From assembly GCA_001512965.1 (NCBI GenBank), contig LFRW01000043.1, positions 23,287 to 87,286 on the forward strand: 64,000 nt of DNA, written 5' to 3'. This document shows, piece after piece, positions 6,119-22,182 of the stretch. The position numbers and the translations under genes were made by a program. The DNA comes from Methanomicrobia archaeon DTU008. GTDB taxonomy: Archaea; Thermoplasmatota; Thermoplasmata; Methanomassiliicoccales; Methanomassiliicoccaceae. Position 1 is the stretch's first letter. Every line of letters starts with the position of its first letter. The notes below the pieces were generated by a model that worked only from the letters and a program-made list of their open reading frames with translations, had not been told where the DNA came from and searched no databases.

Positions 6119-6167
6119 GATCTTCTTCAATCACACCATTGCCTCGTTCGACGTGTCGATATCAAGC

Positions 6168-6190
6168 TTTATAGGATGGATGCACCATCC
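6168..6190 (+). promoter_or_regulatory. TATA box (TTTATA 6168-6173) abutting perfect palindrome GGATGG-ATGCA-CCATCC (6174-6190)
   Basis: The TATA lies about 28 nt before the ATG at 6199, implying a leaderless or near-leaderless transcript. The palindrome fills the TATA-to-start interval, a classic repressor position. The same motif recurs at 13567-13585 and 22166-22182. Confidence 0.6.
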
Positions 6191-6198
6191 AGGTTTAA

Positions 6199-7176
6199 AT
6201 GGCTCTCAGATTCCAATCATATACCGGTGGAGGACCTACTCCCAAGTTCTCACTTTTCCATGTCTGGAAGACGTATGATGTCCTCAATTCCCAGGGACCG
6301 ATCGGCAGAAAGGGTCTATCACAGATCCTTGACATCGGCGAGGGGAGCACGCGTACCATCCTAGACAAGATGATCCGGGAGGGCTCGGTGGAGAGTACTA
6401 AGAAAGGTGCGGTGTTAACCGAACGGGGACGAAAGATGTTCAGATCCTCTGGCATCTTCGCCGCGCCCATCAACATCGATGGATTGACCATCGGGCCGAA
6501 GAACTGCGCGGCATTGGTGAAGGGGATGGCGGACCGGATCGCCACTGGCTATGAGCAAAGGGATGAGGCGGTGCGCTCCGGGGCGATGGGTGCCACCACC
6601 TTGATAGTCAGGGACGGAAATGTGCTGTTCCCGGATGATTCCAACATTCCAGACCAGGCGACCTTCCAGCCTCTCAGGTCACTCTTCACCCTTGAAGATG
6701 GTGACGCCATCATCCTGGGTACCGCCCACAGTTATGAAGCGGCGGAGAAGGGAGCTGTGACCGCGGCACTCGCCCTCAGCGACACGACGCAACCCTGTTG
6801 GAGGGATGGTGCCACAAGTCTCATCTCCGCCGATACGGGAGCGGAGGATCTGAAATGCCTCGCGCTGGCCGTTCATGAGCTGGTGGGCCGAATGCCCGTA
6901 ACGATGAGGAGCCGCAACAACTACGGCGTCAGATGTGAGGACGGCGAGATCATCGACGATAAGTACACCGGCCCGGTCCTGGAGGAGGCGCTGAAGCGCA
7001 ATGCAGTGGTGCGCAGGACAGCCCCATCGGGAGTCTATCGCGGCGTACCAGTCGTCGTGGTCCCGATCATTCGAAAGAAGGAGGCCGTCGCCGTCTTCGG
7101 CGTGGTGGACATAACCAAGGGTGGAATGTTCGAGCTTATCTCCAAATCACGGAAGGAACGCGCCTTTCCACGATGA
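6199..7176 (+). CDS. putative transcription regulator: N-terminal winged helix-turn-helix plus C-terminal archaeal domain of unknown function (resembles DUF4443 + DUF2111 architecture)
   Basis: wHTH-like segment GRKGLSQILDIGEGSTRTILDKMIREGSVESTKKGAVLTERGRKMF. The C-terminal block reads YTGPVLEEALKRNAVVRRTAPSGVYRGVPVVVVPIIRKKEAVAVFGVVDITKG. DUF names are from memory, not searched. Confidence 0.5.
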   Translation: MALRFQSYTGGGPTPKFSLFHVWKTYDVLNSQGPIGRKGLSQILDIGEGSTRTILDKMIREGSVESTKKGAVLTERGRKMFRSSGIFAAPINIDGLTIGPKNCAALVKGMADRIATGYEQRDEAVRSGAMGATTLIVRDGNVLFPDDSNIPDQATFQPLRSLFTLEDGDAIILGTAHSYEAAEKGAVTAALALSDTTQPCWRDGATSLISADTGAEDLKCLALAVHELVGRMPVTMRSRNNYGVRCEDGEIIDDKYTGPVLEEALKRNAVVRRTAPSGVYRGVPVVVVPIIRKKEAVAVFGVVDITKGGMFELISKSRKERAFPR

Positions 7177-7245
7177 TGACCAGGCATGGGCGACCACACC
7201 GACCCTCTTGGAAAGGGTTAAGAGTTCGCTAGCATCTTCACACCC

Positions 7246-7590
7246 ATGGCATCCAGCGAGGAGAACGCTAGAAAGACCCGCCTCTGCGTGGACGCAGGCG
7301 TCTGCCGCTTCCACACCACCGTTCGGGCCTTCAGCGATGATGAGGGTAACATATTGTACGAGATCGAGAGCGAGTGCCCGCACGCAAGTAAGATCCAGGA
7401 TAACATCCCTCGAGAGATGACACCATTTGACGTCATGAAGATGCCCTTCTCCGAAAATCCCATCTATGAGTGCTGCGGGAAGGTCCTCCCGCATTCGGCC
7501 TGTCCGGTGCCTTCAGCGTTGATAAAGGCCGCTGAGGTCGCCGCGGGATTCGGCTTGAAGAGGCGTGTTTGCATGACGTTCGAGGATTAG
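7246..7590 (+). CDS. small cysteine-rich hypothetical protein (114 aa, 7 Cys)
   Basis: ORF with Cys clusters CVDAGVC, ESECPH, YECCGKVLPHSACPVP. No family recognised. Ends in TAG. Confidence 0.45.
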   Translation: MASSEENARKTRLCVDAGVCRFHTTVRAFSDDEGNILYEIESECPHASKIQDNIPREMTPFDVMKMPFSENPIYECCGKVLPHSACPVPSALIKAAEVAAGFGLKRRVCMTFED

Positions 7591-7916
7591 TCAGCCTCTA
7601 GCGGCCCTCCCAGGATCGCATCCACCTTTTCAGACCAGACCACGGTGGCGGGCCCGGCCAGATACATGGCTACGAGCATGGACTCCCTCAGCTCATCCAC
7701 CGTGGCTCCAAGCTCCTTGGCCCGTTCCGCCCATGTCTCGAGACAGGTATCGCATCGCATCAGGCACGAGATGCCTACGGCCATGAGGGCCTTCTCCTTC
7801 GAGCTTAGAGCCCCGTCACGAAATATCTCGTTCTTCAATTTGTACAGCGCATTTATCGCTGCCGGTTGCTGCTTGGCCAGCAGAGTTAAGCTCATAGCGT
7901 GAAAACTCCATGTCAC
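7587..7916 (-). CDS. carboxymuconolactone decarboxylase / AhpD-like family protein
   Basis: 109 aa with the CMD-family pattern LSSKEKALMAVGISCLMRCDTCLETW (CxxC redox motif). Confidence 0.7.
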   Translation of the reverse strand: MTWSFHAMSLTLLAKQQPAAINALYKLKNEIFRDGALSSKEKALMAVGISCLMRCDTCLETWAERAKELGATVDELRESMLVAMYLAGPATVVWSEKVDAILGGPLEAD

Positions 7917-8205
7917 ATATATTAACGATATCTCTCAGGTGGTCCCCATCCTGAGCTCATGAGAATTGGGCGGGGATGCAGCGCCGCGAAGAACATCCTC
8001 ACAATGGGATCCAGAGGAACCGGAAGGGAACGCCCGGATCGACGCTGTGGGCATTCGCGCTAATGCAATTGAATTGATGAATGCAATAGGGGTGGTGAAG
8101 AAGCCTTGACCTCGACCCCATGGGTCAGGTCGTTGATGGTTCACTCTCCTTTTGTCTAGAACCTGCAGCATCCTTTAAGAATCCAAAGACCGTTCGAGAT
8201 GGCAT

Positions 8206-8766
8206 ATGGTGAACCTAGCGGACATCATTTCACGGATCAAGGAGATGAGGGGAGTGGTGCACGCGTTCCCTTTAAATGTCGAATGCCGAGAGAAGATACT
8301 CGAGATAGAGAGCAACATAACCGCTGCTCTAGGCATCAAGGTGATCAACGAGGGCGTCATCGAGTGTCTGAAGAGGCAGTATATCATATGCATCATCAAG
8401 AGGGCTTCGTTCCGCCCACCACCTGAACCCACCGTGATGTTGATCTCCGACGACGGCGTGGTTCTAGGTGAGGAGGTCTTGCCTCACTTCAAGAAGGAGT
8501 TCCTTGCCAATGTCAAGGAAGATATCATATGGCTGTCTGAAGAGTTCGTCATGTACCCTGAGAGGAAGGGGCAACGGAAGGAATACTTCGTCATGCCTCC
8601 GGTGTCGTTCCCTGAGGTGGAGGAGTTCGGCATGCTTGATGTGGTATCATGTTCCCCCTCAGCCCCGGCGGACATGATGCTAAGGCAGATGCACGGTCAC
8701 GAGGACAATCCAAGACTTGCCTCGATCCTCGTAGGGTTCAACGCCCCTGATGGCGTCGAACTCTGA
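8206..8766 (+). CDS. conserved hypothetical protein, paralog of 213-788
   Basis: 186 aa, collinear with the left-edge paralog over the full length (see that entry). Convergent with the end of the mcr operon. Confidence 0.6.
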   Translation: MVNLADIISRIKEMRGVVHAFPLNVECREKILEIESNITAALGIKVINEGVIECLKRQYIICIIKRASFRPPPEPTVMLISDDGVVLGEEVLPHFKKEFLANVKEDIIWLSEEFVMYPERKGQRKEYFVMPPVSFPEVEEFGMLDVVSCSPSAPADMMLRQMHGHEDNPRLASILVGFNAPDGVEL

Positions 8767-8770
8767 AATC

Positions 8771-8800
8771 TTTCCCTCATTTTGATGTTTATTTTTTGAG
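8771..8800 (+). terminator. T-rich tract (tttccctcattttgatgtttattttttgag) after the 8206-8766 gene
   Basis: Oligo-T runs on the coding strand directly after the stop, the usual archaeal termination signal. Confidence 0.4.
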
Positions 8801-8909
8801 GACAGCGTTAGCTCTCCACTTGATCTATGAATGGAACATCGTGATGATCCGAGTCAACGAAGAAACGTAAAAAGGTGAAGGGAAGGGGTTTGGTTCGCTT
8901 GGGACTGCT

Positions 8910-9197
8910 TCATCCTCCGCCTGAAGGAGTTATCTGGGAGGCTTTCGCCTGGATGTCTTCTATCTGCTCGCGCAGACGGTTGACCTCCTCCAGTTGGTCC
9001 TCCAGGCTCCTGTCGCGTGTGGATTCCTTGCGGTACTCCTCCGGCTTGGCAGGAACAAGGGTCGAGACATCGTAGTAGAGGTTGGTGGTGTCCAGGAGTG
9101 CCCAGGTCCTTCCTTCCTCTTCCTTGATGTCCTCTATCTTTCCCACCGATCCGGTGTTGCGATACTTGGCAAGGTCTCCAACTTTCATCGCGATCAC
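8910..9197 (-). CDS. small conserved archaeal protein (resembles DUF2098), last gene of the mcr transcription unit
   Basis: N-terminal SH3/KOW-like [44 protein letters not shown], then a charged coiled tail. The GTG at 9197 overlaps the mcrA TGA (GTGA); an alternative ATG at 9188 lies 5 nt after the stop. Confidence 0.6.
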
Positions 9198-10858
9198 TTG
9201 GCGGGGATGATGATGGTCCTCTCACCCGCAGGCATGAACTCCCTGAGGGCGCCACGGCCGAACTCCTTCGTGATGTTCGCGAAGTCGAACGGCAGGCTCT
9301 TGTCGGCGAAGGCAACCTTGATGAGGGGGTTGCAGGCAAAGGCATCGCCGCGAGCTGCGTGAGGCGCCATCGCAATACCGGCGTAGCCGCTCATGTGACC
9401 GACGTTCATGGCGTAGTTCGGGTAGTTGGGTCCCCTCATCTCGAAGGCCAGACCCTCGTCGCTCCTGTAGGAGAACGAGTTCGCGGAACCGCACTGGTCC
9501 TGCAGGTCGAAGCCGTAGAAGCCGAGACGTCCGTGCCTCTCCTTGTGCTGGAGCATGGACAGGTACCAGCCGTTGACACCGAAGTCGGCGTTGCCGGTCG
9601 CCATCGCACATGCGATACCAGTGGCAGCAGCGGCTACGGTGGCACGCTGGGAACCGCCGAAGTGGGCTTCCATCGCGGCGGGGTACCTCTCGTACATCTC
9701 CAGAGCGTAGGAGTTGACCTCGGTACCGAGCTTCTCCATCAGGTCCATGGAGGGTTTGCTGTTGCACAGGCCGCCGTACTTGGTCTTGATCAGGTCAAGA
9801 GCCCAGTAGACGTAGTCCTCCAGGATGTCGTCGGTGTAGGCCGCAGTAGCGTACTGGGTGAATCCGACACCGCCGGACATGTAGGAACCAAGGTAGATCT
9901 GGTCGTAGATGACGGCACCGAGAGCGACGGTCTCGAGCGCAGCCCTGGCGGGGTCGTCAGGGTAGACGCGGGTGGACTGGACCATGTCGGCCAGGAACCC
10001 GAAGGGAATTCCACCGGGCTCGTTGGGGCCACGGGCCCTGCGGGCCGGCATCATGGTACCCATGTTCACGACCGAGGCGTGCTTGGCAGCGTAGGCGAAG
10101 TCCGCGATGGCGGCCTCACCGGCAGCGAGCCTGTAGGCGCTGATGAAGGACATCGAGATCTGCATGGCAGACCAGCGGGAGATGGTACCTCCGTCGCAGA
10201 CGCGGCCGACAAGGGTCGGGGCGCGGACGACCTGGTACACGGACTTGCCGATGGCGTCCTTCAGCTGCTTGGCCTGGTCCTTGGGGAACTCCTTGTTGAT
10301 GTCGATCACGAAGCGCTTGTCGATCTGGCTGATGAGCTCGTCGTCACCGCTGAAGACCTTCACATAGCAGTCCTCGGCCAGAGCGGGGCTGACCTCAGCC
10401 ATGTGCTCCTGGACGACCGCACCGCCGGGCATGGCATGGTTGACGGTCTCGAGGTACAGGTTGATGGTCTCAGGGGTAACTTCCTTGCCCAGTCTCTTCT
10501 CGATGACGCTGTGAGCGGTGTCGAGACCCACGATGACGGTCCTGCGGATGTCATCCCACGCCTGCTGCATGGCGGCGTTGTTCATGAAGTGCAGGTCGTC
10601 AGCCTCGGCGTAGATGTCGGTGTGGGACAGCCTGTAGGGCATGAGGACACGCTGGCCAAGGGGAACGCCAATGTCCTGGTTCATCATCGGGATGCCACGC
10701 TTCTTGGCGATCTGGTTGGCCTGCTCTACCCACTCCCTCTTCCTCTTGGACTGCTTCCAGCCACCAAATGTGTAGTAGTGAGTGTTGACCTCGGTCGGGT
10801 CCTCTTCGAACTTCTTCTTCATCGCTTCGATGAAGAGCTTCTCCTTAGACTTAGCCAT
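9194..10858 (-). CDS. mcrA: methyl-coenzyme M reductase alpha subunit
   Basis: 554 aa with the canonical blocks [50 protein letters not shown] and [16 protein letters not shown]. The residues that are modified in characterised MCRs are present: H260, R274, Q404, G449, D454, C456. Confidence 0.97.
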
Positions 10859-10862
10859 TTAT

Positions 10863-11636
10863 TTACTCCCCCTTCAGAGCGTAGGCCTGGTAACCGCAAA
10901 GGGTCCTCAGCCTGTGGATCCTCAGGTTGATGGCCATGACCTCGGGGTCGTCCCTCATGTCCACGCCATCGGCCCTGAAGATGGTGGTCATATTCTTCAG
11001 GTCAGCTTCGGGCAGGGGCTTGCCAACGGAGATGGGCTTGTCCAATGGTAGAGCCACCTGGTCCTTGACGTACTCTACCTCTCCGGTCTTGGCGTTCCAG
11101 CGGTACCTCTGCCAGGCATCGAACATCAGACCGTTCTCGTCAAGCCTGCAAGCGTGGCCGTGCACAGTGGCGCCACGGATACCGGTCTTGGCGGGGTCGA
11201 ACGTCTCGTTGTCGATGAGTTCCTTGGAGACCTTCTCGAGGTCACGCTCCCTCATCTCAATGATCTGCCTTCCAGAAAGAGTACCAGTGTCGAAGCCGCG
11301 AATGCGGGTCATGTACATCCAGGCCCTCAGGTATGGAACCATCGGGGCGAAGTACACCGAGTCGGTGAACTGGACGTACCTGATCCTGTCTCCAGCCTTG
11401 GCACCCTCGATGGGGGTGACAAGTTGCCTGATCAGGTCTTCGGGCTCGCTCCCCTCAGCGAGTGGGGGGTGGATGCTCTTGTAATCTTCTCCAGGAGCCC
11501 TGTGTCCAAGGATCCTGATGACGTCGTCCATGGCCACATCGCGAAGCTTCTTCAGCTTCTCGGAGGGGTCCATGTAGCGGCGCCTGTTCTTGGCCACCTG
11601 GCTCTCACCGGGATAGAACTGTCTCTTGTATGCCAT
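10863..11636 (-). CDS. mcrG: methyl-coenzyme M reductase gamma subunit
   Basis: 257 aa: [10 protein letters not shown]..., [46 protein letters not shown]. Confidence 0.95.
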
Positions 11637-11637
11637 G

Positions 11638-12063
11638 TTAACACCTTTTACCCTTTTTGTAATCGGTCACTGTCGGCCTGTATTTCGAGTACCGCCCCAC
11701 TTCCAGGTTGAATCCAAAGGTCAGGATCTCCTGGCAAACCTTCTCGATCTCGTCTAGTGCACCCTGCAGATGATCGATGTCGTCTATCTCGACGAACACC
11801 CTTCCCACCTGGAGCTGCAGTTCGACTTCCTTTCCCTTGACCTTGATCACCCGGCGTTCGGAGTGGTCCACGGGTAACCCGATGTGAGGACCATAGGTGA
11901 CCTTCGTCGGGAGGGATTCGCCAGATAGATTGATCTGACGGACATGCGGAACCTCATAGAGCCTGTTAAGGAGCTTTTCCGTGGTTTCCGCGGAAAGGAG
12001 ACGGTGTGGGAATATGAGAACCTCGGGGAGAGGTATCGATTCAGCGTCAGTACTCGTCATCAA
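11638..12063 (-). CDS. mcrD: methyl-coenzyme M reductase operon protein D
   Basis: 141 aa: [43 protein letters not shown]. Sits between mcrB and mcrG. Confidence 0.88.
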
Positions 12064-12077
12064 GCCACCGTAACCGC

Positions 12078-13397
12078 TTACTTCAGCTTCTTGGCCTCCT
12101 TCCCGACAGCCTTCAACGGGGCCTTGAACTCAGGGATGTCACCATAGACGTCCTTGATCAGGGTCGAAGTGGCCTCAGGAGAGAAGTACTGGGTTCCGGC
12201 ATCGAGGCTGCAAGCAGCGGCGATACATGGGATCACGAAGCCCTTGCTGTGCCTGGTAACGACGTGGTTGCCGTGGAACAGACCGGGACCGCCACCACCA
12301 TAGATGGAGTGCGAGAAGAAGGACATACCGACGGAAACACCCATCGCACGCCCAAAGTCAACGCTGGGAAGTCCAGTCTCGTGCTCGAGCAGGTCGTTGT
12401 AGTACAGAATGGTCGCAGGTACAGCCTGAGATGCCCTAGCAGCACCGATGTTCACCATGACAGCGGCTAGCATACCAGTGGCCGCGTAGGCGTTCCACAG
12501 GGGGAAGTCGTTGGTGGTGTACACCTTGTACCCAGAGGGCAGCTTCTCCTTCACCTTGATGACCTTGTCCTCGATAGCGCGGCCGACGATGGCGCCGACG
12601 ACATCGCCGACGGTACCGTTCTTGCCGCATTCCTTCACAAGGTCAACGGTCAGGTTGTTCGCGTTCAGGCCCTGGTAAGCCAAGCCCAAGAGGTGGTACC
12701 TCTCGAAGGGACCGATAGCGTCACCGAGCTCGAACATGGCGGTCTGCTCGAAGATCGAAGAGATCGCCGCAGCATTCAGAGAGTTCTTGCTGGCAAGAGC
12801 AACCACGTGGTTGGCCATGATGTTCCTGAGAGCGTAGCCAGCACCCTCGTTGTTCTGGGGAACCTCGAGGATGGACTTGACGTTGGAGCCCAGGAAGTTG
12901 ATGGTCTGGGGGTATCTGCCCCACACGGCGGTCTTAACCATGTTCGCGTGGAACATGTCAATTCCGAACTCATCGATGATGGCCTGCGTGACCGCTGCAG
13001 CGGCTGCAGTGAAACCGGTCGTGTACTCGACACCGGTCTCTACCCTGCGGGTCGGAACCTGGACAACCAGCCTCTTTCCGCCAAGGATGGGGTGCACATC
13101 GGTGTCGTCGTCCTTGTCGACCTTGAGGATGTCCTTGACCCTCTTGGCGATCTTGTCAGCGTTGGCCACTACCTCTACGTCGATCTCCTTGCCCTTGATG
13201 TATCCGCCGGCGACACGTCCGGTCTTGAGACCCTTCTCAATTCCGGCAAGGTCTACCGCGATGGTCCTCTTGGCAAGAGATACGATTCTCTGGATCGCAG
13301 GGTTGTACAGAGGGTTGATCGCATCGAGGGGCACATCCTTCTCGATGAGTTTGCCCTTGTCGTCATACAAGTCTATTTTGTCCTTGTATTTCGCCAA
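12078..13397 (-). CDS. mcrB: methyl-coenzyme M reductase beta subunit (TTG start)
   Basis: The track ORF opens at 13427. The family N-terminus (M)[14 protein letters not shown] begins at the TTG at 13397, exactly 6 nt after GGAGGT (13404-13409). The remainder is typical McrB ([22 protein letters not shown]). Confidence 0.93.
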
Positions 13398-13460
13398 ATT
13401 TCTACCTCCTTTTTCATCTTCCTTCAATCGCCCGGAGTTCCCCCCGCGCGATTAAGACGT

Positions 13461-13480
13461 TTATAGATTATATAGATTAT
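13461..13480 (-). promoter_or_regulatory. candidate mcr promoter: tandem TATAGATTA x2 (minus strand ATAATCTATATAATCTATAA)
   Basis: AT-rich TATA-like element 64-83 nt upstream of the mcrB TTG. It would give a leader of about 45 nt containing the SD. Confidence 0.45.
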
Positions 13481-13566
13481 CATCAGGTCGGTTTTTTTCC
13501 TCACTGATGAAAATCGAATCCCCTTGCGTTGGCTTGTAAGTATAGAGATGCATATAAGACTAGTGA

Positions 13567-13585
13567 TGGATGGATTAACCATCCA
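13567..13585. promoter_or_regulatory. perfect 19-nt palindrome TGGATGG-ATTAA-CCATCCA upstream of the mcr operon
   Basis: Read directly. About 170 nt upstream of the mcrB start and about 70 nt downstream of the tfuA stop. On the minus strand it is preceded by TTTATCTT. Same half-sites and spacing as 6174-6190. Confidence 0.6.
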
Positions 13586-13655
13586 AGATAAACAATCGTG
13601 ATTTTTTGAAGGGAGCCAGTCATTTTTTGAAAAACTTAACGGCAGTTAATTTTTC

Positions 13656-14288
13656 TCAATTTTTTTGAGCCGATTTAACAGCTTTAATGACAGAAATAGC
13701 GTCGATTCGTTTAAAATTTCGATTCTTAGATTTAATATAGGATTCGAATTTTTTCATCGTTGTCTGTTGCAAAACTTTTCTAGATATGGCCAATAGCATT
13801 TCATAGGATCTCTTGGGGTAAAACGTTGATTTCAGTTGCTCAATAATAATCATTGCATCTGATTCTGATATGACTCTATCTTTGACCGCCTCCTCCACAT
13901 TGAGCCGCAGGTTGACCAACGGCTCTGAGAGGGCGGCAAGGGTGAACGGATCGAACATTAGCACCACCTCATCGTCGCCCTCGATGCGCCCAGAGGAATA
14001 TTCCTCGTAGATCCGTCCCACTCCTATCATGCCAAGGCTGTCCAGCTCGGCCGCGCGGAGCGCTCCCATCGAACCGCCGCCGATGACCCTTGTACCTCGC
14101 TGCATCAGCTGAAGTATCTCCCTATGGCCGACCGCGGCATCGCTGAGCAGTACGCCATCTATTATCCCTACCACCTCCACTCCTTCGGGGAGTTCTAGAA
14201 GATCCCCTCGCTTCACCGGAGGGCGGTAGTCCGCATCGAGGATACGCCTAGCCTCCTCATGAGGGAGGCTGGGGCCAAGGAAGATCAC
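13656..14288 (-). CDS. tfuA: TfuA-like protein (YcaO partner for McrA thioamidation)
   Basis: 210 aa: MIFLGPSLP, PPVKRGDL, GIIDGV, VIGGGSMGALRAAEL, GVGRIYE. Sits directly downstream of ycaO. Confidence 0.85.
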   Translation of the reverse strand: MIFLGPSLPHEEARRILDADYRPPVKRGDLLELPEGVEVVGIIDGVLLSDAAVGHREILQLMQRGTRVIGGGSMGALRAAELDSLGMIGVGRIYEEYSSGRIEGDDEVVLMFDPFTLAALSEPLVNLRLNVEEAVKDRVISESDAMIIIEQLKSTFYPKRSYEMLLAISRKVLQQTTMKKFESYIKSKNRNFKRIDAISVIKAVKSAQKN

Positions 14289-14293
14289 CGGCT

Positions 14294-15496
14294 TCAGCGG
14301 AAACCACCCATCAGGCGTGCGCCGACGCGATCCTCGTCGATGGCGAATACTTCCATCCCAGGCACGATCACGCGAACCACTGGAATGCCCAGCTCCTTCC
14401 GGGTGAGGTCCACGACCACGGTGCGGTTCATTCCCTGCGCATTGATCTTGGCTCTGACTATCTGCAGGTCATCGAAGATATCGTCCGTCCCCATGCGGGG
14501 GAGATCGTCAAGGGAGCGCTTGTTTCCCGAGGGGGTGAGCCACATCTTGTTTATCCTCTTCATTCGCTCATAGCCCAACTTCCGGTTGCCTATCGCATAC
14601 ACGGCATCCTCCCTTGCACCATGGATCTGCGTGAGACGGCTCTGGGCCACCTCCAGCAACGCCTTGGTGGCGGCCACCTCGGGATCGAGATGGGTGCCGA
14701 TGCCCAGGTTCAGAAGTGCGGGGTCCTGCATTATGGTGTCATCGACGGCTGCGGCGATGGTCGGGATCCCTATCTCGGTCGTCAGGTCCTTGAGGTGCAC
14801 ATCGATGCCATTGCTCGTGAATCGCTCGACCAGTTCCTTCACCGGCCCGGACGACGGCACCTCTATGTCGCCGGTTATCCTGCGCCTTCCCTCCGCGAAG
14901 GACCAATCATTGCGCTCCACCACCTCATATAGGCCGTGCAACACCGCCTCCTCCACATTGTTGCCGCTGGCCAGACCGTTCGTCGACGTTCTGAAGAGAG
15001 GGAAATCCATCTTGGACACATATGGATGGAACACAGCACTGGCCGGCACCCAGGTCTCCTCATTGCCGTTCAGCTCCCATCCCTTCACCCATGCCACGGA
15101 CTGGCGCATGACGTAGAACGCCGCATGCTGCGAGAGGATCAGGTCCATCGGGTGAACGGCGACGTGGGAGGCCATGAACTCCTCGACGCCCTGCCTGATG
15201 ATGAAGTCGTCCCGGACCTCCGCGCTATACCTCTCCAGGGCCTCCATGATGGCGGAGACCTTCGCCTCCTCCTTGGTCAGCCCCTTCCCATTGTACACCG
15301 AGATGGCGCCGCTCTTGGCGGTAGGGCGGATGGCCGAGAAGACCGGAATTCCCACACGGTCGAGATCCGTGATGTCCGCAACCCTGGTCACACCCGCAAC
15401 GCCCATCAGGGGCTCAATCCTGGCAAGGGTCTCGGCAGGCTCGACCGATCGATGCCCGTCAGAGGTGAATTTCTTGGGAGTGCTTCCGAGCTTCAT
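14294..15496 (-). CDS. ycaO: YcaO-family ATP-dependent cyclodehydratase/thioamidase
   Basis: YcaO blocks: GIPVFSAIRP, SVYNGKGLTKEEAKVSAIMEALERYS, TNGLASGNNVEEAVLHGLYEVVERN. Homology starts at MKLGSTPKK (ATG 15496). The 100-codon track extension to 15799 is S/R-rich and overlaps the divergent gene. Confidence 0.88.
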   Translation of the reverse strand: MKLGSTPKKFTSDGHRSVEPAETLARIEPLMGVAGVTRVADITDLDRVGIPVFSAIRPTAKSGAISVYNGKGLTKEEAKVSAIMEALERYSAEVRDDFIIRQGVEEFMASHVAVHPMDLILSQHAAFYVMRQSVAWVKGWELNGNEETWVPASAVFHPYVSKMDFPLFRTSTNGLASGNNVEEAVLHGLYEVVERNDWSFAEGRRRITGDIEVPSSGPVKELVERFTSNGIDVHLKDLTTEIGIPTIAAAVDDTIMQDPALLNLGIGTHLDPEVAATKALLEVAQSRLTQIHGAREDAVYAIGNRKLGYERMKRINKMWLTPSGNKRSLDDLPRMGTDDIFDDLQIVRAKINAQGMNRTVVVDLTRKELGIPVVRVIVPGMEVFAIDEDRVGARLMGGFR

Positions 15497-15557
15497 GCCC
15501 TCGCCATAATCTCCTCCCCTATTAAATCTCACGAAGCGGACATATACCTGGGATACA

Positions 15558-16409
15558 TTGACGGGACGGTTTTCGCTGATGAGAACAAGTGAGATCATGG
15601 GCATGAGCGCCAGGTTCATCGAACCGTCCTTCGATGCGCTGGTCGACGAGTCGTTCACCGGGATAATCCTCACCCTGCCCGCCCAGGAGGCTCGATTGGT
15701 CGTAGACGAGGAAGACTGGCCCCTTGCGTTGGCGGTGCGCGACGGCGAGGCGTGGAATGCCGCTTCGTTCCTGCTTCGCCCCCCGATCATCGAGGTCATC
15801 GAGAGGTTCGAAGAACTGGGGGGAGATGTCGTTCATACCACCCAGGACGAGTTCATGCTGGCAATGCGGGAGTACTACTCGCTCCATATCCTCAACAATA
15901 CACTGATGGCCATGGAGGACCTGTCCCCGGACCGTACAGCCAAGGTCGAGGAGCTCATAGCTTCGGTATGGAAGGGCCGACGAGGAGAGGAGTGCATGGA
16001 CTGCGGGTGCGGCTCGGGCATGGGGTCCCTCGCCCTCAGGAACCAAGGCATCATCCCTCTGGCCTTCGACAATGACGCTGGCCTCATTGCTCGCGGCCTG
16101 CACGAGGGTCGCCTGATCCCCGAAAGGACCATGTGCATCGATGCCACCTTGCTATCCCATTATGCTAGACAGGTGCCTCTTGGGCTCGCTCTGATGGCTG
16201 GTTCCATAATCGATCAGACCGCCATGATGTGGAGAGCCATCCTGGAAGAGCTGTTCTCCATGACCAGGGAGACGTTGATAACCGTGGAGACGGAGAAGGA
16301 GGCGAACATGGTTCGGACGTGGGCCCTGGAAAATGAGAAGAACGTGGAGATGTTCGAGAACGAGCGTGACCCCTTCTACGATCGCTGGGTTTGCCTGGTG
16401 AAGGATTGA
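15558..16409 (+). CDS. class I SAM-dependent methyltransferase with unrecognised N-terminal domain
   Basis: Motif I ECMDCGCGSGMGSLAL, acidic post-I residue in PLAFDNDAGLI, and later strands CIDATLL and GLALMAGSI. About 130 aa of N-terminal sequence has no motif I recognise. Start may be 15597 or 15603. Divergent from ycaO across about 60 bp. Confidence 0.65.
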   Translation: MTGRFSLMRTSEIMGMSARFIEPSFDALVDESFTGIILTLPAQEARLVVDEEDWPLALAVRDGEAWNAASFLLRPPIIEVIERFEELGGDVVHTTQDEFMLAMREYYSLHILNNTLMAMEDLSPDRTAKVEELIASVWKGRRGEECMDCGCGSGMGSLALRNQGIIPLAFDNDAGLIARGLHEGRLIPERTMCIDATLLSHYARQVPLGLALMAGSIIDQTAMMWRAILEELFSMTRETLITVETEKEANMVRTWALENEKNVEMFENERDPFYDRWVCLVKD

Positions 16410-16883
16410 TCAGCGCAGGTTCCCCATCTTCTTCTGGTAGAGGTCCAGTTCAGCGTTGGGGTTGATAGTCACGCTGTCTATGATGATGTCGACCTCGACA
16501 TTGTTGATGTTAGGTATCTTGAGTATGTGCGTCTGAATCAGTTCATAGAGGGAATCGACGCTAGTGGTGTAGATGTTCAAGACCAGGCTGTGGTCGCCGA
16601 ACGTCCTCATCACCGACTCCACTTCTGGATACTTCTTCAGCTCCTCCACCACATTGTTGACGGCGGTGCCAGTGACCTGCAGGCCGACCAGTGCCTTCAT
16701 CAACCCAAGCTTGGCCGGGTTGGTCTCCATAGAATAGCCAGAGATTATTCCTTCCTCCTCCATCTTGGAGAGTCGGCGAGATACCGTTGCCTTTGATATG
16801 TTAAGCTCCTCAGATATTTTGCCGAGACTGTCCCGGGAATTTTCCCGTAGGCATTTCAAGATAGAGATGTCGGTTGGGTCCAT
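16410..16883 (-). CDS. Lrp/AsnC family transcriptional regulator
   Basis: 157 aa: the HTH is DISILKCLRENSRDSLGKISEELNISKATVSRRLSKMEEEGII, followed by a RAM/ACT-like C-terminal domain. Confidence 0.85.
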   Translation of the reverse strand: MDPTDISILKCLRENSRDSLGKISEELNISKATVSRRLSKMEEEGIISGYSMETNPAKLGLMKALVGLQVTGTAVNNVVEELKKYPEVESVMRTFGDHSLVLNIYTTSVDSLYELIQTHILKIPNINNVEVDIIIDSVTINPNAELDLYQKKMGNLR

Positions 16884-17102
16884 TCGTCACCTTTGCAACA
16901 TTGTTCCATTTCCAGCAGATTGTCGGCTCATAATTGGGACAATGTTTCAGAGAAATACCATTTTATGTATTAATCGTTGTCGAATTTTGGTATTGTGGGA
17001 ACGTTGGGATCGATGAAGGGCATCGAAGGAATGGATGCGGGGGCGCATAGGACGGAATAGAAATAAAATAGAATGGATAAAGGGGGTTTATGAGAGTCCA
17101 GC

Positions 17103-18743
17103 TCAAGCGCGCTGGGTGACCTTGAGGTCGCCGAATCGGTACACCTTTTGAGGGCAGACCGACTCGCAGTGCTTGCAGGCCGTTCCAAGGCAGTGCTCGG
17201 TGGCGATCCTGATGGTGAAGTCGTGGGGGCCGCCCTCGAGCACCTGCAGCGCCCTCTCCGGACACTCCTCTTCGCACATCTTGCAGCCAATGCAGCCCTC
17301 GAAGCCGCCAGTGAGGTATACGCCGACATTGTCGAGGATGTGCAGCCCATGGTCGCCTATCACGGGGATGTCGGATACCACCAGACGCTTCATCTCCTTG
17401 GGGCGGACTATCGGCGGCAGAGGCTGGAGGCCGTTGCTCTTGAGCACCTCGTTATACATCTCCTCAGGCATCCCTTCCGCCCAGAACGCGATCTCGTTGA
17501 CATACATGTCCTCGAAGATCTTGCTGGTGGCGAACATGATGTGCTTCGACGCGATGGAGTCGGCGACCTTCTGCATCTCGTCGAGAGCAGAGTCGTCCCT
17601 GACTAGATCATATGCCATCATAAGCGAAGTGTTTCCCACCTGGACCGTGGCGTCTATGACCCGAGGCACCATCCCCACCCTCTGCGCCTTGAGCGGATCG
17701 ACATATGTGCCAGAGGCTCCCGCCAGGTACATGGTCTTGACATCGTTGTCCTTGATACCGACCTCTTCGATGAGCGTGCGGTGGCCTGCCCGTATGGCGC
17801 CCATGGCCTTTCCGGCCTCCGCCAGGTCGGTCTCGGAGAAGGTTATGCCATCCTGGAAGTGCAGTAGATGGTCGGGCGTCCTGATGCCCGGCAGCGAGAT
17901 GAGACCGGATTCGAGACCCACCGCCACTGCCGCAACTACTCCGGTGCCTGTGATGCCGCGTGCCCTGATGTCTGCCATCCGCTTCGACGTCCCGTTCGCC
18001 GGGTCGGTCAGGCTGCCCACAACGGGATGCAGGTTTGGATCCAGCACGACGTTTTTCCAGAGATCGTCCTCGCCGATGTTGAGGTCGGATATGGCGAACG
18101 GGGCTGCGAGCATCCCATGGTCGATGGCCTGCCCCTCCATGGCGGGACCCGCCGCGGCGGAGCCGCTATACAGCTCCCCGTCATGGAACAGCCCCATCTC
18201 GGCGTTCGTGCCATAATCGGTGACTATGCAGGTCTCCTTCTTTTCCAGTAGGCCGGACTTCATGATCATGGCCAGGGCGTCCGCCCCGATCTCATGTCGG
18301 ATCGCGGGAGGTATGACCACTTCAACCTCGGACCTCACAGATGTAAGGCCGAGATCGCCGGCCGTCGTCACGTGACCACGGCGCTCAGGAATCTTCACCT
18401 GGAGGCGTTTCAACAGCGACTGTCCGGCATATGCCAGGTCCCTGATCTCGATGTTCTCGAACATCGACACCTGGGCGGGATTGCCGCAGACCGCTATACG
18501 CTCGATCTCCTTGAGCGGTACGCCGTGAAGCTCTATGAGACGGCTCACGGTGTTCATTATGATGCTGTGACCCACCTCTGCCCCGTTCTCCAGCCAGAAA
18601 TGCAGATGGTCCATGATGTTTGCCCCTGGAAGGGGGTGTCTCATGGTGATCGCCGTCGAGACTATCTTGCCGTTTTTTGACAGGTCCACAAGGTGGGTCC
18701 TATAGCCACTTGTTCCTACGTCGAGTGCAACACCGTAGCCCAT
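17103..18743 (-). CDS. ramA: corrinoid protein reductive activase RamA (ASKHA ATPase + 2x[4Fe-4S] ferredoxin domain)
   Basis: 546 aa: ALDVGTSGYR, TDYGTNAEM and AGPAMEGQ (ASKHA fold). The C-terminus carries CIGCKMCEEECP and CLGTACKHCESVCP. Confidence 0.85.
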   Translation of the reverse strand: MGYGVALDVGTSGYRTHLVDLSKNGKIVSTAITMRHPLPGANIMDHLHFWLENGAEVGHSIIMNTVSRLIELHGVPLKEIERIAVCGNPAQVSMFENIEIRDLAYAGQSLLKRLQVKIPERRGHVTTAGDLGLTSVRSEVEVVIPPAIRHEIGADALAMIMKSGLLEKKETCIVTDYGTNAEMGLFHDGELYSGSAAAGPAMEGQAIDHGMLAAPFAISDLNIGEDDLWKNVVLDPNLHPVVGSLTDPANGTSKRMADIRARGITGTGVVAAVAVGLESGLISLPGIRTPDHLLHFQDGITFSETDLAEAGKAMGAIRAGHRTLIEEVGIKDNDVKTMYLAGASGTYVDPLKAQRVGMVPRVIDATVQVGNTSLMMAYDLVRDDSALDEMQKVADSIASKHIMFATSKIFEDMYVNEIAFWAEGMPEEMYNEVLKSNGLQPLPPIVRPKEMKRLVVSDIPVIGDHGLHILDNVGVYLTGGFEGCIGCKMCEEECPERALQVLEGGPHDFTIRIATEHCLGTACKHCESVCPQKVYRFGDLKVTQRA

Positions 18744-19155: not shown

Positions 19156-19172
19156 AAACTGCAAGGCAGTTT
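19156..19172 (-). terminator. hairpin AAACTGC-N3-GCAGTTT overlapping the MT2 stop codon, followed by T-rich tract
   Basis: 7-bp perfect stem read directly. The minus-strand transcript continues TTTTCCGAAACCCCTTATTCCTTTCTTATTTTCATTTC. Confidence 0.4.
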
Positions 19173-20169
19173 ATCCCTTGATGGCCTTGACCATCGCCTC
19201 GATGTTCGCCTTGGGAACACGAGCGGCGAGACCGCAGCCAGGAGCGACGACGTTGAAGCCGGCGTTCTTGATGTCCAGGGCGTGCTCGCGGCACTCCTCG
19301 GGAGTTCCCTGAAGCAGCGGGCGGACGACACCCATGTTACCGACAAGGGCGGCGCGGCCAGCGACGAGCTCGACGGCCCTGTGGGGGTTTACCTTCTCCT
19401 CGATCGAGAGCGCATCTGCACCAGTGTCGATCATGTGGTCCAGGAGAATGGTGGTGTCTCCGCAGATGTGCAGGATCTTGAGAGCGCCCTCGGCACCCTC
19501 CCACGCGGTCTTGGTGTACGGCTTGGCGAACTCGTCGAACATCTCACCGGACAGCATGTCGGTGGAGGCGGAGGGGTCGCTCATGGCGATGACGTCAGCA
19601 CCAGCGGCGACAAGGGCCTGCAGGTACTTCTTCTCCATCTCAGCGGCCACCTTGATGAACTTGTGAACGGCATCGGGATCGGTGATCATCATGAGCAACA
19701 GGTTCTCGGTGCCGACCAGGTGGCCAGCGATGGTCAGGGGACCGGTGGTGCCCACGACGATCGGGAGCTCGTCGCCATACTGCTGCTTCAGCAGCTTGGT
19801 GGCCTCGATGACCGTCTTGACCCTGCCCTTCTCAAGGAAGTCCTCGGGGTAGACGGGGGTGTCCTCAGCGGTGTAGATGTGCTTCTTAACCATGGGGGTG
19901 CGGTCTACCTTGCCCAGGTCCACGAGGCAGCCAAAGGCCTCAGCCTCGACGGTCAGGCAGAACGGGATCCTGGCGTTCTCGAATCCAAAGACCTTGTAGC
20001 CAGCAGCTCCGAGCTCAGCCATCTGCTTGGCGTCGGTGTGTGCCTCGGGCCAGAAAGCACCAACAGCTTCCATCTGGTCAACGGTTACGGATTGGGTGAC
20101 GCATCCGACTGCGGGCCTGTCCAGCTCCTCACGCTTAAGTGCTGCAATGAACCTCTCTTTCGGGGTCGT
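19171..20169 (-). CDS. methylcobamide:coenzyme M methyltransferase (MT2, MtaA/MtbA family), apparent ACG initiation
   Basis: UroD-like MT2: the track ORF starts at ATG 20073 (MEAVGAFWPEAH...), yet the 32 in-frame codons upstream encode TTPKERFIAALKREELDRPAVGCVTQSVTVDQ, the conserved family N-terminus. The frame is closed by TAA at 20182-20184. The only candidate start is ACG 20167-20169, 6 nt after GGAGGT (20176-20181). Confidence 0.8.
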   Translation of the reverse strand, partial: TTPKERFIAALKREELDRPAVGCVTQSVTVDQMEAVGAFWPEAHTDAKQMAELGAAGYKVFGFENARIPFCLTVEAEAFGCLVDLGKVDRTPMVKKHIYTAEDTPVYPEDFLEKGRVKTVIEATKLLKQQYGDELPIVVGTTGPLTIAGHLVGTENLLLMMITDPDAVHKFIKVAAEMEKKYLQALVAAGADVIAMSDPSASTDMLSGEMFDEFAKPYTKTAWEGAEGALKILHICGDTTILLDHMIDTGADALSIEEKVNPHRAVELVAGRAALVGNMGVVRPLLQGTPEECREHALDIKNAGFNVVAPGCGLAARVPKANIEAMVKAIKG

Positions 20170-20214
20170 AGAATTACCTCCTTATCCAAAAGATTTAGTT
20201 GGCAATTGGAATAA

Positions 20215-20222
20215 CTATATAA
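20215..20222 (-). promoter_or_regulatory. TATA box TTATATAG for the MT2 gene
   Basis: Lies 46 nt upstream of the ACG at 20169. The predicted transcript start is near 20190, leaving about 20 nt of leader with the SD. Confidence 0.4.
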
Positions 20223-20393
20223 TTAGTTTTCGTCAATTTTGGTGAACAATCGTTGGTATCGGGAACAGTCTGGCTCATGTTCATGTTCGCTTTCAAAATG
20301 CGAGCGATATGTATCTTTTCATGGATGTAAGGAGGTCAAGGACATCACCCCCTTGAGTACATCTGGGAGAAGCGATATGATGGCCTTGAAGCA

Positions 20394-21341
20394 TCATTGC
20401 TCCGGCAACCGGCCGCCCCGGAAGTCGATATCGCTCCATGGGTCCTTCGAGGCCTTTTCCCATACGTTTCGTATGTTGAAGCTCCGTGGACCCAGGTCAG
20501 GATCGTCCAGTTCCTCCCACCGCAAGGGCGCTGCCACCGGAGCGCCGTCCCTTGCCCTGACAGCATACGGGGCCACCCCGGTCTGGGCATAGGCGTTGCG
20601 GAACACGTCCACAAGCAGACGGCCTTCCCTCTCCGTAACAGAGCGTTCCATCGTCAGCCTGTCATCCATCTGGACCATCTCATCCGCTATGCCCATGGCA
20701 TAGGACCTGACGGCATCGAAGTCAGCGGTGCGATCGAGCGGTACCACGACATGCATTCCTCTGGACCCCGTCGTCATGACGAAACCTTTCAGCCCATCGT
20801 CGGAAAGGAGCTCCCGCGCCAGAAGGGCGGCCTCCTTCACCACCTCGAAGTCATCATCGCCAGGGTCGAGATCGAGAATCATGCGATCCGGACATTCCGG
20901 ACGGTCCACGCGGCTCAACCATACGTGAGGGGTGATGCAGTCGAGGTTGGCTAGATAGACGAGGTCCGCGGTCTTCTCACACACCATGTGCCTCACATAT
21001 CCGCCCTGCTTGGGCATGTTCTCGGTTCGTAACCAGGAAGGCGCCCCTCGGGGTACGTTCTTCTGTATGAAGCCAGGGGCATCGATGCCATTTGGATGCC
21101 GTACCATAGACACCGGCCTCTCCTTGATGAATGGAAGCATGAACGGAGCTATGCGCCTGTAATAATCGACCAGGTCTGCCTTGGTATACCCATTGCGAGG
21201 AAACAATGGACGATCAGGGTTCGTGATATCGATCTCTATGATCCCAGGGGATCCTTCGACCTCGATATCGATACCGCATGAACTTGCATCCTCCCTCGGA
21301 TCATGCATTCGCCAGACCATGGGAGGACGATGGGTGCCCAT
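20394..21341 (-). CDS. stand-alone LigD-type polymerase/primase domain (NHEJ PolDom, AEP superfamily)
   Basis: 315 aa: ITNPDRPLFPRNGYTKADLVDYY, ERPVSMVRHPNG, ILDLDPGDD, FVMTTGSRGMHVVVPL, LVDVFRNAYAQTGVAPYAVRAR. No ligase, Ku or phosphoesterase domain is attached. Confidence 0.8.
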   Translation of the reverse strand: MGTHRPPMVWRMHDPREDASSCGIDIEVEGSPGIIEIDITNPDRPLFPRNGYTKADLVDYYRRIAPFMLPFIKERPVSMVRHPNGIDAPGFIQKNVPRGAPSWLRTENMPKQGGYVRHMVCEKTADLVYLANLDCITPHVWLSRVDRPECPDRMILDLDPGDDDFEVVKEAALLARELLSDDGLKGFVMTTGSRGMHVVVPLDRTADFDAVRSYAMGIADEMVQMDDRLTMERSVTEREGRLLVDVFRNAYAQTGVAPYAVRARDGAPVAAPLRWEELDDPDLGPRSFNIRNVWEKASKDPWSDIDFRGGRLPEQ

Positions 21342-21406
21342 AGCTTCTATAATCTATCACTCGCTCGGCTGCGACGATAGGAATCGATCGGAAAAGTAGG
21401 TTGAAA

Positions 21407-21425
21407 GGAGGGACGTGGTCCCTCC
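21407..21425 (-). terminator. GC-rich hairpin GGAGGGAC-GTG-GTCCCTCC downstream of the corrinoid gene
   Basis: Perfect 8-bp stem, 20 nt after the stop at 21445. Followed on the minus strand by TTTCAACCTACTTTTCC. Confidence 0.5.
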
Positions 21426-21444
21426 GTGGTTTGTGTGGTTATGT

Positions 21445-22083
21445 TTACTTCAGAAGGTTCTGGACGACCTGGACGGCCTCGACAGCGTCGTAAGCCCATC
21501 CATCGGCACCGATCTGAGCGGCGAACTCCTTGGAGGTAGCACCGCCACCGATGATGGTCTTCATCTTGCCCTTCAGGTTCTCCTCGGCGAGCATGCGCTC
21601 GATCTCCTTCATGGCCGCCAGGGTGGGGGTCATGAGGGTAGAGGCAGCAACAACCTGGGCCTCCTCGGCCTTAGCCTTCTCAACAATGTTCTTCACGGGC
21701 ACATCGCGGCCGAGGTCGAAGATGGTGAGTCCAGCTCCGGTCAGCATGGCCTTGACGATGTTCTTTCCGATGTCGTGCACGTCACCCTCGACGACAGCGA
21801 GGACGATCTTACCAGGAACGGCGTTTGCATCAACGACGAGCTTAGGCAAGGCAACGTCAAGAGACTGGTACATGGTCTGAGCGGACAGAAGGACCTGGGG
21901 CAGGAAGTACTGCTTGTTCTCGTACTTCTCGCCTACGACAGCCATGGCCTTGCTGAGGCTATCAAAGATGATGGTCTTAGCGTCGATGCCAGCAGCGAGT
22001 GCTTCCTCGGTGAGAGGTTTGGCCTCCTTGATCTTTCCCCTAATAACAACATCTGCTAGCTTTTCGAGTATCTCATTGCTCAT
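21445..22083 (-). CDS. methyltransferase-cognate corrinoid protein (MtaC/MtbC/MttC family), no adjacent MT1 gene
   Basis: 212 aa: EEALAAGIDA, FLPQVLLSAQTM, EGDVHDIGKNIVKAML (DxHxxG), VVAASTLMTPTL, IGGGA. Confidence 0.85.
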   Translation of the reverse strand: MSNEILEKLADVVIRGKIKEAKPLTEEALAAGIDAKTIIFDSLSKAMAVVGEKYENKQYFLPQVLLSAQTMYQSLDVALPKLVVDANAVPGKIVLAVVEGDVHDIGKNIVKAMLTGAGLTIFDLGRDVPVKNIVEKAKAEEAQVVAASTLMTPTLAAMKEIERMLAEENLKGKMKTIIGGGATSKEFAAQIGADGWAYDAVEAVQVVQNLLK

Positions 22084-22165
22084 GCTCTGATTCCCTCCGT
22101 AGTTATTCTACTCGGTTAAGGAGTTTCGAAATTGCATCAGGTTGCATAATAATAAACCCTTTTAT

Positions 22166-22182
22166 GGATGGATGATACATCC
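22166..22182. promoter_or_regulatory. near-perfect palindrome GGATGG-ATGAT-ACATCC upstream of the corrinoid gene
   Basis: One mismatch relative to GGATGG-N5-CCATCC. Lies 83-99 nt upstream of ATG 22083. Flanked by TTTTAT on the plus strand and TTTATTATTATG on the minus strand. Confidence 0.5.

Follow-up and report, generated by a model that had tools for sequence, protein, structure and literature searches.

A conserved palindrome in the promoters of mcrBDGA, a corrinoid-protein gene and a linked putative regulator gene of Methanomassiliicoccales

Palindromic Sites in the Window

The DNA analyzed here is a 64,000-nucleotide stretch of Methanomicrobia archaeon DTU008 (GenBank contig LFRW01000043.1, positions 23,287 to 87,286), herein referred to as the window. 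It has 58.6% G+C and belongs to a Methanomassiliicoccaceae archaeon occurring in anaerobic digesters. Three sites within a methanogenesis island of this window carry the palindrome GGATGG-N5-CCATCC: one in the promoter of a gene for a winged helix-turn-helix (wHTH) protein, one in the promoter of the mcrBDGA operon for methyl-coenzyme M reductase (MCR), and one in the promoter of a corrinoid-protein gene. With a probability of about 0.6, this palindrome is an operator that is bound by a dimer of the wHTH protein, which would act as a repressor at its own promoter and probably as an activator of mcr and the corrinoid-protein gene. MCR is the catalyst of the methane-forming step, and the mcr promoter is mostly regarded as constitutive. 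To our knowledge, the transcriptional control of mcr is poorly understood in any methanogen. The sites and the genes they precede are as follows.

6167..6173, plus strand: TATA box cTTTATA of the regulator gene, read from the sequence; abuts site 1
6174..6190, no strand: site 1, operator-like palindrome in the promoter of the regulator gene
6199..7176, plus strand: candidate regulator, 325 aa, wHTH (PH0730-like_N/CggR_N) with DUF4443 and DUF2111
8910-13427, minus strand: putative target operon, mcrBDGA with a gene for a 95-aa DUF2098 protein
13551..13558, minus strand: mcr TATA box CTTATATG; begins 9 nt after site 2
13568..13584, no strand: site 2, palindrome in the mcr promoter, upstream of the TFB-recognition element (BRE) and TATA box
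20394..22083, minus strand: putative target transcription unit, corrinoid-protein and PrimPol-like genes
22149..22156, minus strand: TATA box TTTATTAT of the corrinoid-protein gene; begins 9 nt after site 3
22166..22182, no strand: site 3, palindrome in the promoter of the corrinoid-protein gene

Site 1 (GGATGGATGCACCATCC) is a perfect copy of the palindrome; it abuts TTTATA (6168-6173), and the ATG at 6199 follows 8 nt further on. Site 2 (GGATGGATTAACCATCC; GGATGGTTAATCCATCC on the gene strand) forms, together with the flanking T and A, the perfect 19-mer TGGATGGATTAACCATCCA (13567-13585) and lies 141 nt upstream of the TTG start of mcrB at 13427 on the minus strand. Site 3 (GGATGGATGATACATCC; GGATGTATCATCCATCC on the gene strand) has one mismatch and lies 83 nt upstream of the ATG of the corrinoid-protein gene at 22083, also on the minus strand. 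The genes upstream of sites 2 and 3 on the same strand are tfuA and a metallophosphoesterase gene, respectively. A preliminary description of this DNA, made from the sequence, gave the coordinates and sequences of all three sites exactly. Its statement that no other intergenic copy with the same spacing exists was borne out: no further match with up to one mismatch was found anywhere in the 64-kb window, and all three sites are intergenic.

The core GGATG-N7-CATCC, which is conserved throughout the order, is perfect at all three sites. The full conserved form is an 8-1-8 palindrome, GGATGGAT-N-ATCCATCC, from which sites 2 and 3 deviate at one position each and site 1 at two. In the flanks of the three sites, no similarity was found beyond a T...A pair, a single base on either side. 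The centres of the two half-sites are separated by 11 bp, or one helical turn. The sites differ in their placement: site 1 is located between the TATA box and the start, and sites 2 and 3 lie upstream of the TATA box, stopping 9 nt before it and approximately 2-3 bp from the BRE.

Recurrence Beyond Chance

Shuffling of the whole window gave a borderline result for GGATGG-N5-CCATCC with up to one mismatch (mean of 0.73 matches; three or more in 5 of 100 shuffles), this test being blind to two copies being perfect and to all three lying within approximately 5.7 kb of intergenic DNA. A simulation that was motif-agnostic and covered any 6-Nk-6 palindrome with k = 0-10 gave two perfect copies in 0.6% of 1000 intergenic sets, and two perfect copies with a third of up to one mismatch in none of the 1000. 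The core GGATG-N7-CATCC has four matches in the window against 0.25 expected, a number reached in none of 100 shuffles; the fourth match, at 44284, falls within coding sequence.

A position weight matrix (PWM) was derived from 24 unique mcr-promoter sites, all of them from other genomes. Sites 2, 3, and 1 are its three best matches in the 64 kb, with scores of 37.4, 29.4, and 17.3, respectively, followed by 11.4 for the next match. Simulation of 300 windows gave best scores with a mean of 8.1 and a maximum of 22.0, and third-best scores that did not exceed 10.1. The recurrence of the palindrome is thereby confirmed as real and far beyond chance. No further regulon members were indicated in the window, the next-best PWM matches (6477, 16196, and 44284) being weak or located in coding sequence. 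Additionally, a scan of the window found no palindrome in the promoters of the mtaA-like, ramA, lrp, and atwA/mcrC-like genes. The fourth-best PWM match, CGATGGATTGACCATCG at 6477-6493, is located in the coding sequence of the candidate regulator, where it encodes the conserved peptide IDGLTIG, and is probably a coding coincidence.

Transcripts and Promoter Geometry

Contigs of the mcr operon assembled from metatranscriptomes end at 13512-13516 in three independent runs, and one contig spans 8880-13516. The longest contig of the corrinoid-protein gene ends at 22125; its distance from the TATA centre, approximately 27 nt, is that expected of an archaeal start. Another contig (20702-21774) joins the corrinoid-protein and PrimPol-like genes. 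Since the mcr and corrinoid contigs end downstream of the respective TATA boxes, sites 2 and 3 are not included in these transcripts. The regulator transcript is rare, with a depth of approximately 3-7, and the coverage was too low to place its 5' end; the depth of mcr ranges from tens to thousands, depending on the run. The transcript of the ammonium-transporter gene preceding the regulator gene ends at 6103, before site 1.

The mcr TATA box is followed in all lineages by a conserved GCAAGGGG box, the start of which lies 22-25 nt further downstream. The mcr transcript would start near 13527, with the contigs approximately 11 nt short, and from the predicted starts, sites 2 and 3 would be centred at about -49. 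From its geometry, the regulator gene is predicted to have a leaderless mRNA that begins at about 6198, which would put site 1 at about -24 to -8 and its centre at about -16.

Several further observations concern these transcripts. The sequence GCAAGGGGAnnCGATTTTC (13509-13527, minus strand) is conserved in all Methanomassiliicoccaceae promoters, where its distance downstream of the mcr TATA box hardly varies (22-25 nt). It probably represents the 5' end of the mcr mRNA and may function as a leader element; no matching Rfam family was found for it. At 13462, within the mcr 5' untranslated region, the mcr transcript contigs from three metatranscriptome runs have a 9-nt deletion relative to the window in the direct repeat aatctata, which is a strain polymorphism. 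The ammonium-transporter gene (4957-6033) is highly expressed in one biogas metatranscriptome, with a depth of approximately 235; the end of its contig at 6103 falls in a CCAAACCC-repeat region, with no read-through into the regulator promoter.

Conservation of the Sites in Related Genomes

Searching Methanomassiliicoccales genomes with a profile of the regulator protein yielded 80 loci, 77 of them with enough upstream sequence. In 67 of these 77 loci, distributed across the order, a GGATG…CATCC palindrome directly follows a TATA-like box, 0-9 nt before the ATG. Its form varies by clade, being the 17-mer in the clade of the window and TGGATG-N7-CATCCA in Methanomethylophilaceae. The commonest form, found in 49 loci, is the 21-mer GGATGGAT-N5-ATCCATCC, which is readable as two overlapping 17-bp registers, each one mismatch off the core.

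The upstream regions of mcrB (37 in total) were picked by protein homology only. Perfect GGATGG-N5-CCATCC was found in 26 of them and a one-mismatch copy in 3 more, that is, in 29 of the 37. In these sites, the arms are invariant and the 5-nt spacer is variable. The sequence TTATAT always begins 10 nt after the palindrome, an offset that is fixed in 44 unique promoter sequences.

Orthologs of the corrinoid protein were identified by protein identity, and their loci have a common gene order: DHH, RNase H-like, metallophosphoesterase, corrinoid protein, PrimPol-like, and mtaA. Of 8 orthologous loci, 6 have the palindrome at an unchanged offset, including those with proteins only 71-74% identical, and the TATA box is kept as TTTATWAT. 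Thus, as to conservation in relatives, the sites are kept at fixed positions in the orthologous mcr, corrinoid, and regulator promoters.

The matches are also almost confined to these promoters. In 1.24 Mb of related loci, 95 matches scored 14 or more with the PWM; 58 were located in regulator promoters, 33 in mcrB promoters, and 4 elsewhere (91 of 95 at these promoters). Public metagenome contigs were scanned with the exact pattern GGATGG-N5-CCATCCA-N9-TTAT, which matched at least 120 stretches, among them at least 27 mcrB and at least 12 corrinoid promoters, including those of low-G+C corrinoid-mtaA operons. Among the matches listed, every recognizable methanogen promoter context was an mcrB or corrinoid promoter; the rest belonged to unrelated organisms, mostly in coding sequence, and two methanogen-like matches (L128 and L199) run up to contig edges. 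Perfect copies of both the regulator site and the mcr site are present on a contig that also encodes a protein named by NCBI as M. luminyensis, so the hypothesis can be tested in a cultured organism. The palindrome thus has the properties of an operator: it occurs in promoter DNA beyond chance expectation, its half-sites are kept and its spacer is free, and its position is fixed relative to core promoter elements.

Candidate Regulator

The protein encoded at 6199-7176 consists of three domains. A PH0730-like/CggR-like wHTH occupies residues ~29-82 (PF22167, 43.9 bits with a cut-off of 30.2), DUF4443 occupies residues 99-193 (PF14544, 90.9 bits), and DUF2111 occupies residues 225-306 (PF09884, 113.2 bits), the last being full-length (profile positions 1-83 of 83). 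CggR_N was matched with 27.3 bits, below the Pfam cut-off of 30, and no NCBIfam match was found. DUF2111 may correspond to COG4029, a methanogen-specific protein. The structure of PH0730 (PDB 2p8t) covers the first two domains (E = 4e-21). An AlphaFold2 model of the protein has a pLDDT of 81.7, and Foldseek aligned it to 2p8t with a TM-score of 0.76 on the target (E = 1.3e-11). Foldseek matches to IclR-type proteins with a wHTH plus effector domain have TM-scores of 0.18-0.27 and reflect the overall architecture only.

In a library of 1.8 billion proteins, the full three-domain form is represented by about ten clusters at 50% identity. All full-length relatives with a name or record title belong to Methanomassiliicoccales or to unclassified Thermoplasmata/Euryarchaeota bins. 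Additionally, many proteins of 190-215 aa match residues 11-193, and stand-alone proteins of 110-140 aa match residues 209-318. Since both parts have separate homologs, the regulator is a fusion. The two-domain relatives were found in Thermoplasmata, Bathyarchaeia, Hadesarchaea, and other groups. Like the half-site of the palindrome, the recognition helix GEGSxRTIL is invariant, and the two C-terminal domains contain the invariant residues C220, H226, and C246.

Paralogs of the candidate regulator were also observed. A 194-aa wHTH-DUF4443 protein of Methanomassiliicoccales is encoded next to the gene for archaeal S-adenosylmethionine (SAM) synthetase, with no palindrome nearby (L210, 4001-4585), and the two genes are apparently co-transcribed. 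Some genomes have a second three-domain paralog located beside ramA-mtaA-corrinoid clusters (L055, L056, L058, and L066). The promoters of these genes have no palindrome in L055, L056, and L058, and a one-mismatch GGATG-N7-CATCC in L066.

Proposed Mechanism and Alternative Explanations

From the arrangement described above, we infer the binding protein, its dimeric binding, the direction of regulation, and the existence of a ligand. The wHTH factor would bind the palindrome as a homodimer. Site 1 lies where a repressor operator would be expected: a dimer bound to it would cover the stretch from the TATA box to the leaderless start and thereby block the recruitment of RNA polymerase, resulting in negative autoregulation. 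At about -49, just beyond the BRE, the factor would assist the recruitment of TBP and TFB, and MCR and the corrinoid methyl carrier would be co-activated. Archaeal activators aid TBP/TFB recruitment from just upstream of the BRE. At the regulator gene, the site follows the TATA box, and at the targets it precedes the BRE and TATA box, which implies opposite regulatory outcomes. The two C-terminal domains would probably act as a sensor, either of a small molecule or of a redox or metal signal.

The preliminary description had suggested one dimeric regulator coordinating the expression of MCR and methyltransferases and had named the 6199-7176 protein and an Lrp protein (16410-16883) as candidates. 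Comparative tests support such coordination for a small regulon, with the binding itself predicted. A broad methanogenesis regulon did not emerge, as only the regulator gene, mcrBDGA with the DUF2098 gene, and the corrinoid-protein gene have been seen so far. Of the two candidates, the 6199-7176 protein is favored over Lrp, the promoter of which has no site, because the regulator's own promoter carries the site across the order and its gene is tightly syntenic with mcr, which is the classic signature of an autoregulated factor.

Several observations weigh against this interpretation. The transcript ends come from assembled contigs and not from 5'-end mapping. The direction of regulation at mcr and the corrinoid-protein gene is read from position only, and a site ending 2-3 bp from the BRE could repress too. 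Most regulator promoters have the 21-bp form, with arms 4 bp further apart than in the 17-bp form, so that the additional assumption of two overlapping registers is needed. The mcr promoters of Methanomethylophilaceae (four loci) have no site, though the regulator gene and the palindrome in its own promoter are kept; this suggests that the control of mcr has been rewired in this host-associated family. Two corrinoid promoters, those of the closest ortholog (L081) and of an M. luminyensis-like locus (L084), keep only the TATA-proximal half-site. Paralogs without the palindrome have the same recognition-helix motif, and covariation of helix and operator is therefore uninformative. Finally, the lrp gene is syntenic as well.

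The same operator and regulator could alternatively act by repression at all three promoters, with ligand release causing derepression; this is the less likely arrangement, and one to be taken seriously. Characterized archaeal wHTH regulators are mostly repressors. With only 9 nt separating sites 2 and 3 from the TATA box, and approximately 2-3 bp separating them from the BRE, a bound protein could cover part of the BRE and would then hinder TFB/TBP, and the high expression of the targets in all metatranscriptomes is compatible with a derepressed state. Against this stands the strict spacing to the TATA box in two unrelated promoters, which fits a face-of-helix contact with TBP/TFB. Moreover, two-sided archaeal regulators typically activate from the upstream position, as does TrmBL1 (PMC4706686). 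It is rather improbable that the palindrome is a genuine operator of another factor, such as the Lrp/AsnC protein, the 194-aa PH0730-like paralog, or an unlinked regulator, and that 6199-7176 is merely one of its targets. The lrp gene is kept downstream of ycaO in many loci, and the recognition-helix motif is common to the paralogs, both of which would suit such a factor; yet neither the lrp promoter region (16884-17102) nor the locus of the 194-aa paralog has a site, and the order-wide site in the regulator's own promoter, together with the tight synteny with mcr, is characteristic of a cognate autoregulated factor.

A role in nucleic-acid structure, either as an RNA hairpin (a terminator or processing signal of upstream transcripts) or as a DNA cruciform, is very improbable. 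As RNA, the palindromes could form hairpins of 6-7 bp (-9 to -10.5 kcal/mol), and sites 2 and 3 are located downstream of the same-strand tfuA and metallophosphoesterase genes. However, the palindromes are not reached by the transcript contigs of the genes that follow them, the ammonium-transporter transcript ends before site 1, and the regulator-gene site falls between the TATA box and the start. The arms are invariant in sequence and not merely complementary, and their spacing is locked to the TATA box rather than to the upstream stop codon. No Rfam family matched the palindromes; the search for RNA families found only a tRNA. The transcript ends, the invariant arms, and the lack of an Rfam match also speak against an intrinsic terminator or structured RNA. 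Chance recurrence or the remnant of a mobile element is the least probable origin, with almost nothing left in its favor except the weak result of the whole-window shuffle taken alone. The motif-agnostic simulation, the independent PWM, and the conservation in orthologous promoters are all contrary to it, and the conservation data effectively refute it. The flanks share no similarity beyond one base on each side, and no extended repeated flanks were found that would indicate a miniature inverted-repeat transposable element or the terminal repeat of an insertion sequence.

If the palindrome is the operator of the 6199-7176 protein, a more far-reaching interpretation can be put forward tentatively, and we regard it as possible rather than probable. 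The wHTH-DUF4443-DUF2111 protein, a Methanomassiliicoccales-specific fusion, might be the first dedicated transcriptional regulator of MCR in any methanogen, sensing a methanogenesis-linked signal, activating mcr and the corrinoid carrier, and limiting its own synthesis. The candidate signals would be coenzyme M/coenzyme B or the heterodisulfide, methyl-corrinoid, nickel/cobalt status, or redox state sensed via the invariant Cys and His residues.

Comparison With Known Regulatory Systems

The closest analogy was found in TrmBL1/Tgr and the Thermococcales glycolytic motif (TGM, TATCAC-N5-GTGATA). Like the palindrome described here, TGM is a 6-N5-6 inverted repeat, and the factor combines a wHTH with a sensor domain. 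TrmBL1 coordinates a central energy pathway, as is predicted for the present factor, and in both systems sites are located both upstream of the BRE and TATA box and downstream of the TATA box. TrmBL1 is an activator at sites upstream of the promoter and a repressor at downstream ones (PMC4706686), an outcome that is predicted here from position. The two systems differ in the half-site sequence, in the tiny size of the regulon considered here, and in that the site downstream of the TATA box is located here in the factor's own promoter. The 6199-7176 protein is not a member of the TrmB family, as PF01978 is absent and the Pfam matches are confined to DUF2111, DUF4443, PH0730-like_N, and CggR_N.

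With an N-terminal PH0730-like wHTH followed by DUF4443, the regulator belongs to the PH0730-like/DUF4443 class. Its N-terminal 195 residues are homologous to PH0730 (2p8t) and to two-domain DUF4443 proteins, with approximately 35-45% identity to many proteins of 190-215 aa. These two-domain proteins differ from the regulator in having no C-terminal DUF2111, and none of them has a described function or operator. The CggR/SorC repressors have a similar wHTH (PDB 2o0m and 7oyk; Foldseek TM-score of 0.64 for 7oyk on the target). CggR binds direct repeats as a tetramer. Membership in the SorC/CggR family is contradicted by the CggR_N score below the cut-off and by the absence of the SorC sugar-phosphate-binding effector domain in the Pfam search; for the IclR family, no Pfam match was found in the 6199-7176 protein.

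Other archaeal HTH factors act on methanogenesis genes, including MsrA-G and MreA of Methanosarcina, MsvR, and FilR1 of Methanosaeta. Several of these are autoregulated, as is predicted for the regulator described here, and all come from other protein families and lineages. The promoters bound by FilR1 are its own and those of acs and mtr, and not that of mcr (PMC3991700); in the literature retrieved, FilR1 is the one methanogenesis regulator that was tested on mcr. In the literature, no described factor with a conserved operator at an mcr promoter was found. Full-text searches also retrieved no account of DUF2111/DUF4443 regulators, of PH0730 function, of an mcr operator in Methanomassiliicoccales, or of the motif itself, in agreement with the earlier remark that no such regulon is described for this lineage. 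Archaeal operator-regulator pairs are a known class, to which the system described here would add a new regulon and a new member of a transcription-factor family.

The mcr promoter element is 17 bp long, occupies a fixed place, and is conserved over a family-level radiation. The second putative target encodes a highly expressed corrinoid protein, and the candidate regulator is syntenic, predicted to be autoregulated, and derived from an uncharacterized protein family. Together, these three make the control of mcr testable in one methanogen order. They also provide a first functional lead for DUF4443/PH0730 and DUF2111.

Gene Neighborhood and Additional Observations

The genes surrounding the three sites are listed below.

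789-1391, minus strand: mcrC-like gene
1388-3013, minus strand: ABC-ATPase gene, likely atwA (MCR component A2)
4957-6033, plus strand: ammonium transporter
6199-7176, plus strand: regulator gene
7587-7916, minus strand: CMD-family gene
8206-8766, plus strand: gene for a 186-aa protein, function not assigned
8910-9197, minus strand: DUF2098 gene, 95 aa, labeled from its homolog on contig L209
9194-10858, minus strand: mcrA
10863-11636, minus strand: mcrG
11638-12063, minus strand: mcrD
12078-13427, minus strand: mcrB (Pfam MCR_beta)
13656-14288, minus strand: tfuA
14294-15799, minus strand: ycaO
16410-16883, minus strand: lrp
17103-18743, minus strand: ramA
19171-20073, minus strand: mtaA-like gene
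20394-21341, minus strand: PrimPol-like gene (Pfam LigD_Prim-Pol)
21445-22083, minus strand: corrinoid-protein gene, specificity not assigned (Pfam B12-binding and B12-binding_2)

The order of the regulator gene, the CMD-family gene, the gene for the 186-aa protein, the DUF2098 gene, mcrAGDB, tfuA, and ycaO, followed by lrp, is kept in approximately 60 loci (tblastn). The corrinoid protein was matched by the NCBIfam model for methyltransferase-cognate corrinoid proteins and falls below the cut-off of every specific family. The DUF2098 gene overlaps the mcrA stop codon, follows mcrA across the order, and is co-transcribed with mcrBDGA. The 186-aa protein, for which no Pfam or NCBIfam match was found, is kept between the regulator gene and mcr across the order, and a paralog with 27-31% identity is encoded approximately 3 kb upstream of the regulator gene in many related loci.

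Other conserved boxes were observed near the palindrome. A second palindrome, TTAAC-N4-GTTAA, to which a second regulator may bind, has its sole match in the window at 13636-13649; on the gene strand, this lies approximately 55 nt upstream of the mcr GGATGG site. Boxes similar to TTAACnnnnGTTAA were found in most Methanomassiliicoccaceae mcrB upstream regions and beside the GGATGG site in some corrinoid promoters (L083, L086, and L095). A AACAATCGTT / ACGATTGTTTA box (13589-13600) abuts the palindrome in the mcr promoters, where it is conserved. This box is also located upstream of the mtaA-like gene (20245-20254) and further upstream in the corrinoid promoter (22234-22243). On the M. luminyensis-like contig L209, four tandem TTAACAATTGC-like repeats (9247-9442) occupy the intergenic region upstream of the ABC-ATPase (atwA-like) gene.

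The mtaA-like gene, when read from the ATG at 20073, aligns to MtaA profiles only from profile position ~36. The 35 codons upstream of this ATG are open and conserved and contain no ATG, GTG, or TTG. Within 20160-20181 on the minus strand, an in-frame ACG at 20178 is preceded by a GGAGGT Shine-Dalgarno sequence at a distance of 6 nt, and transcript contigs extend to 20181, which suggests a non-canonical ACG start for this gene.

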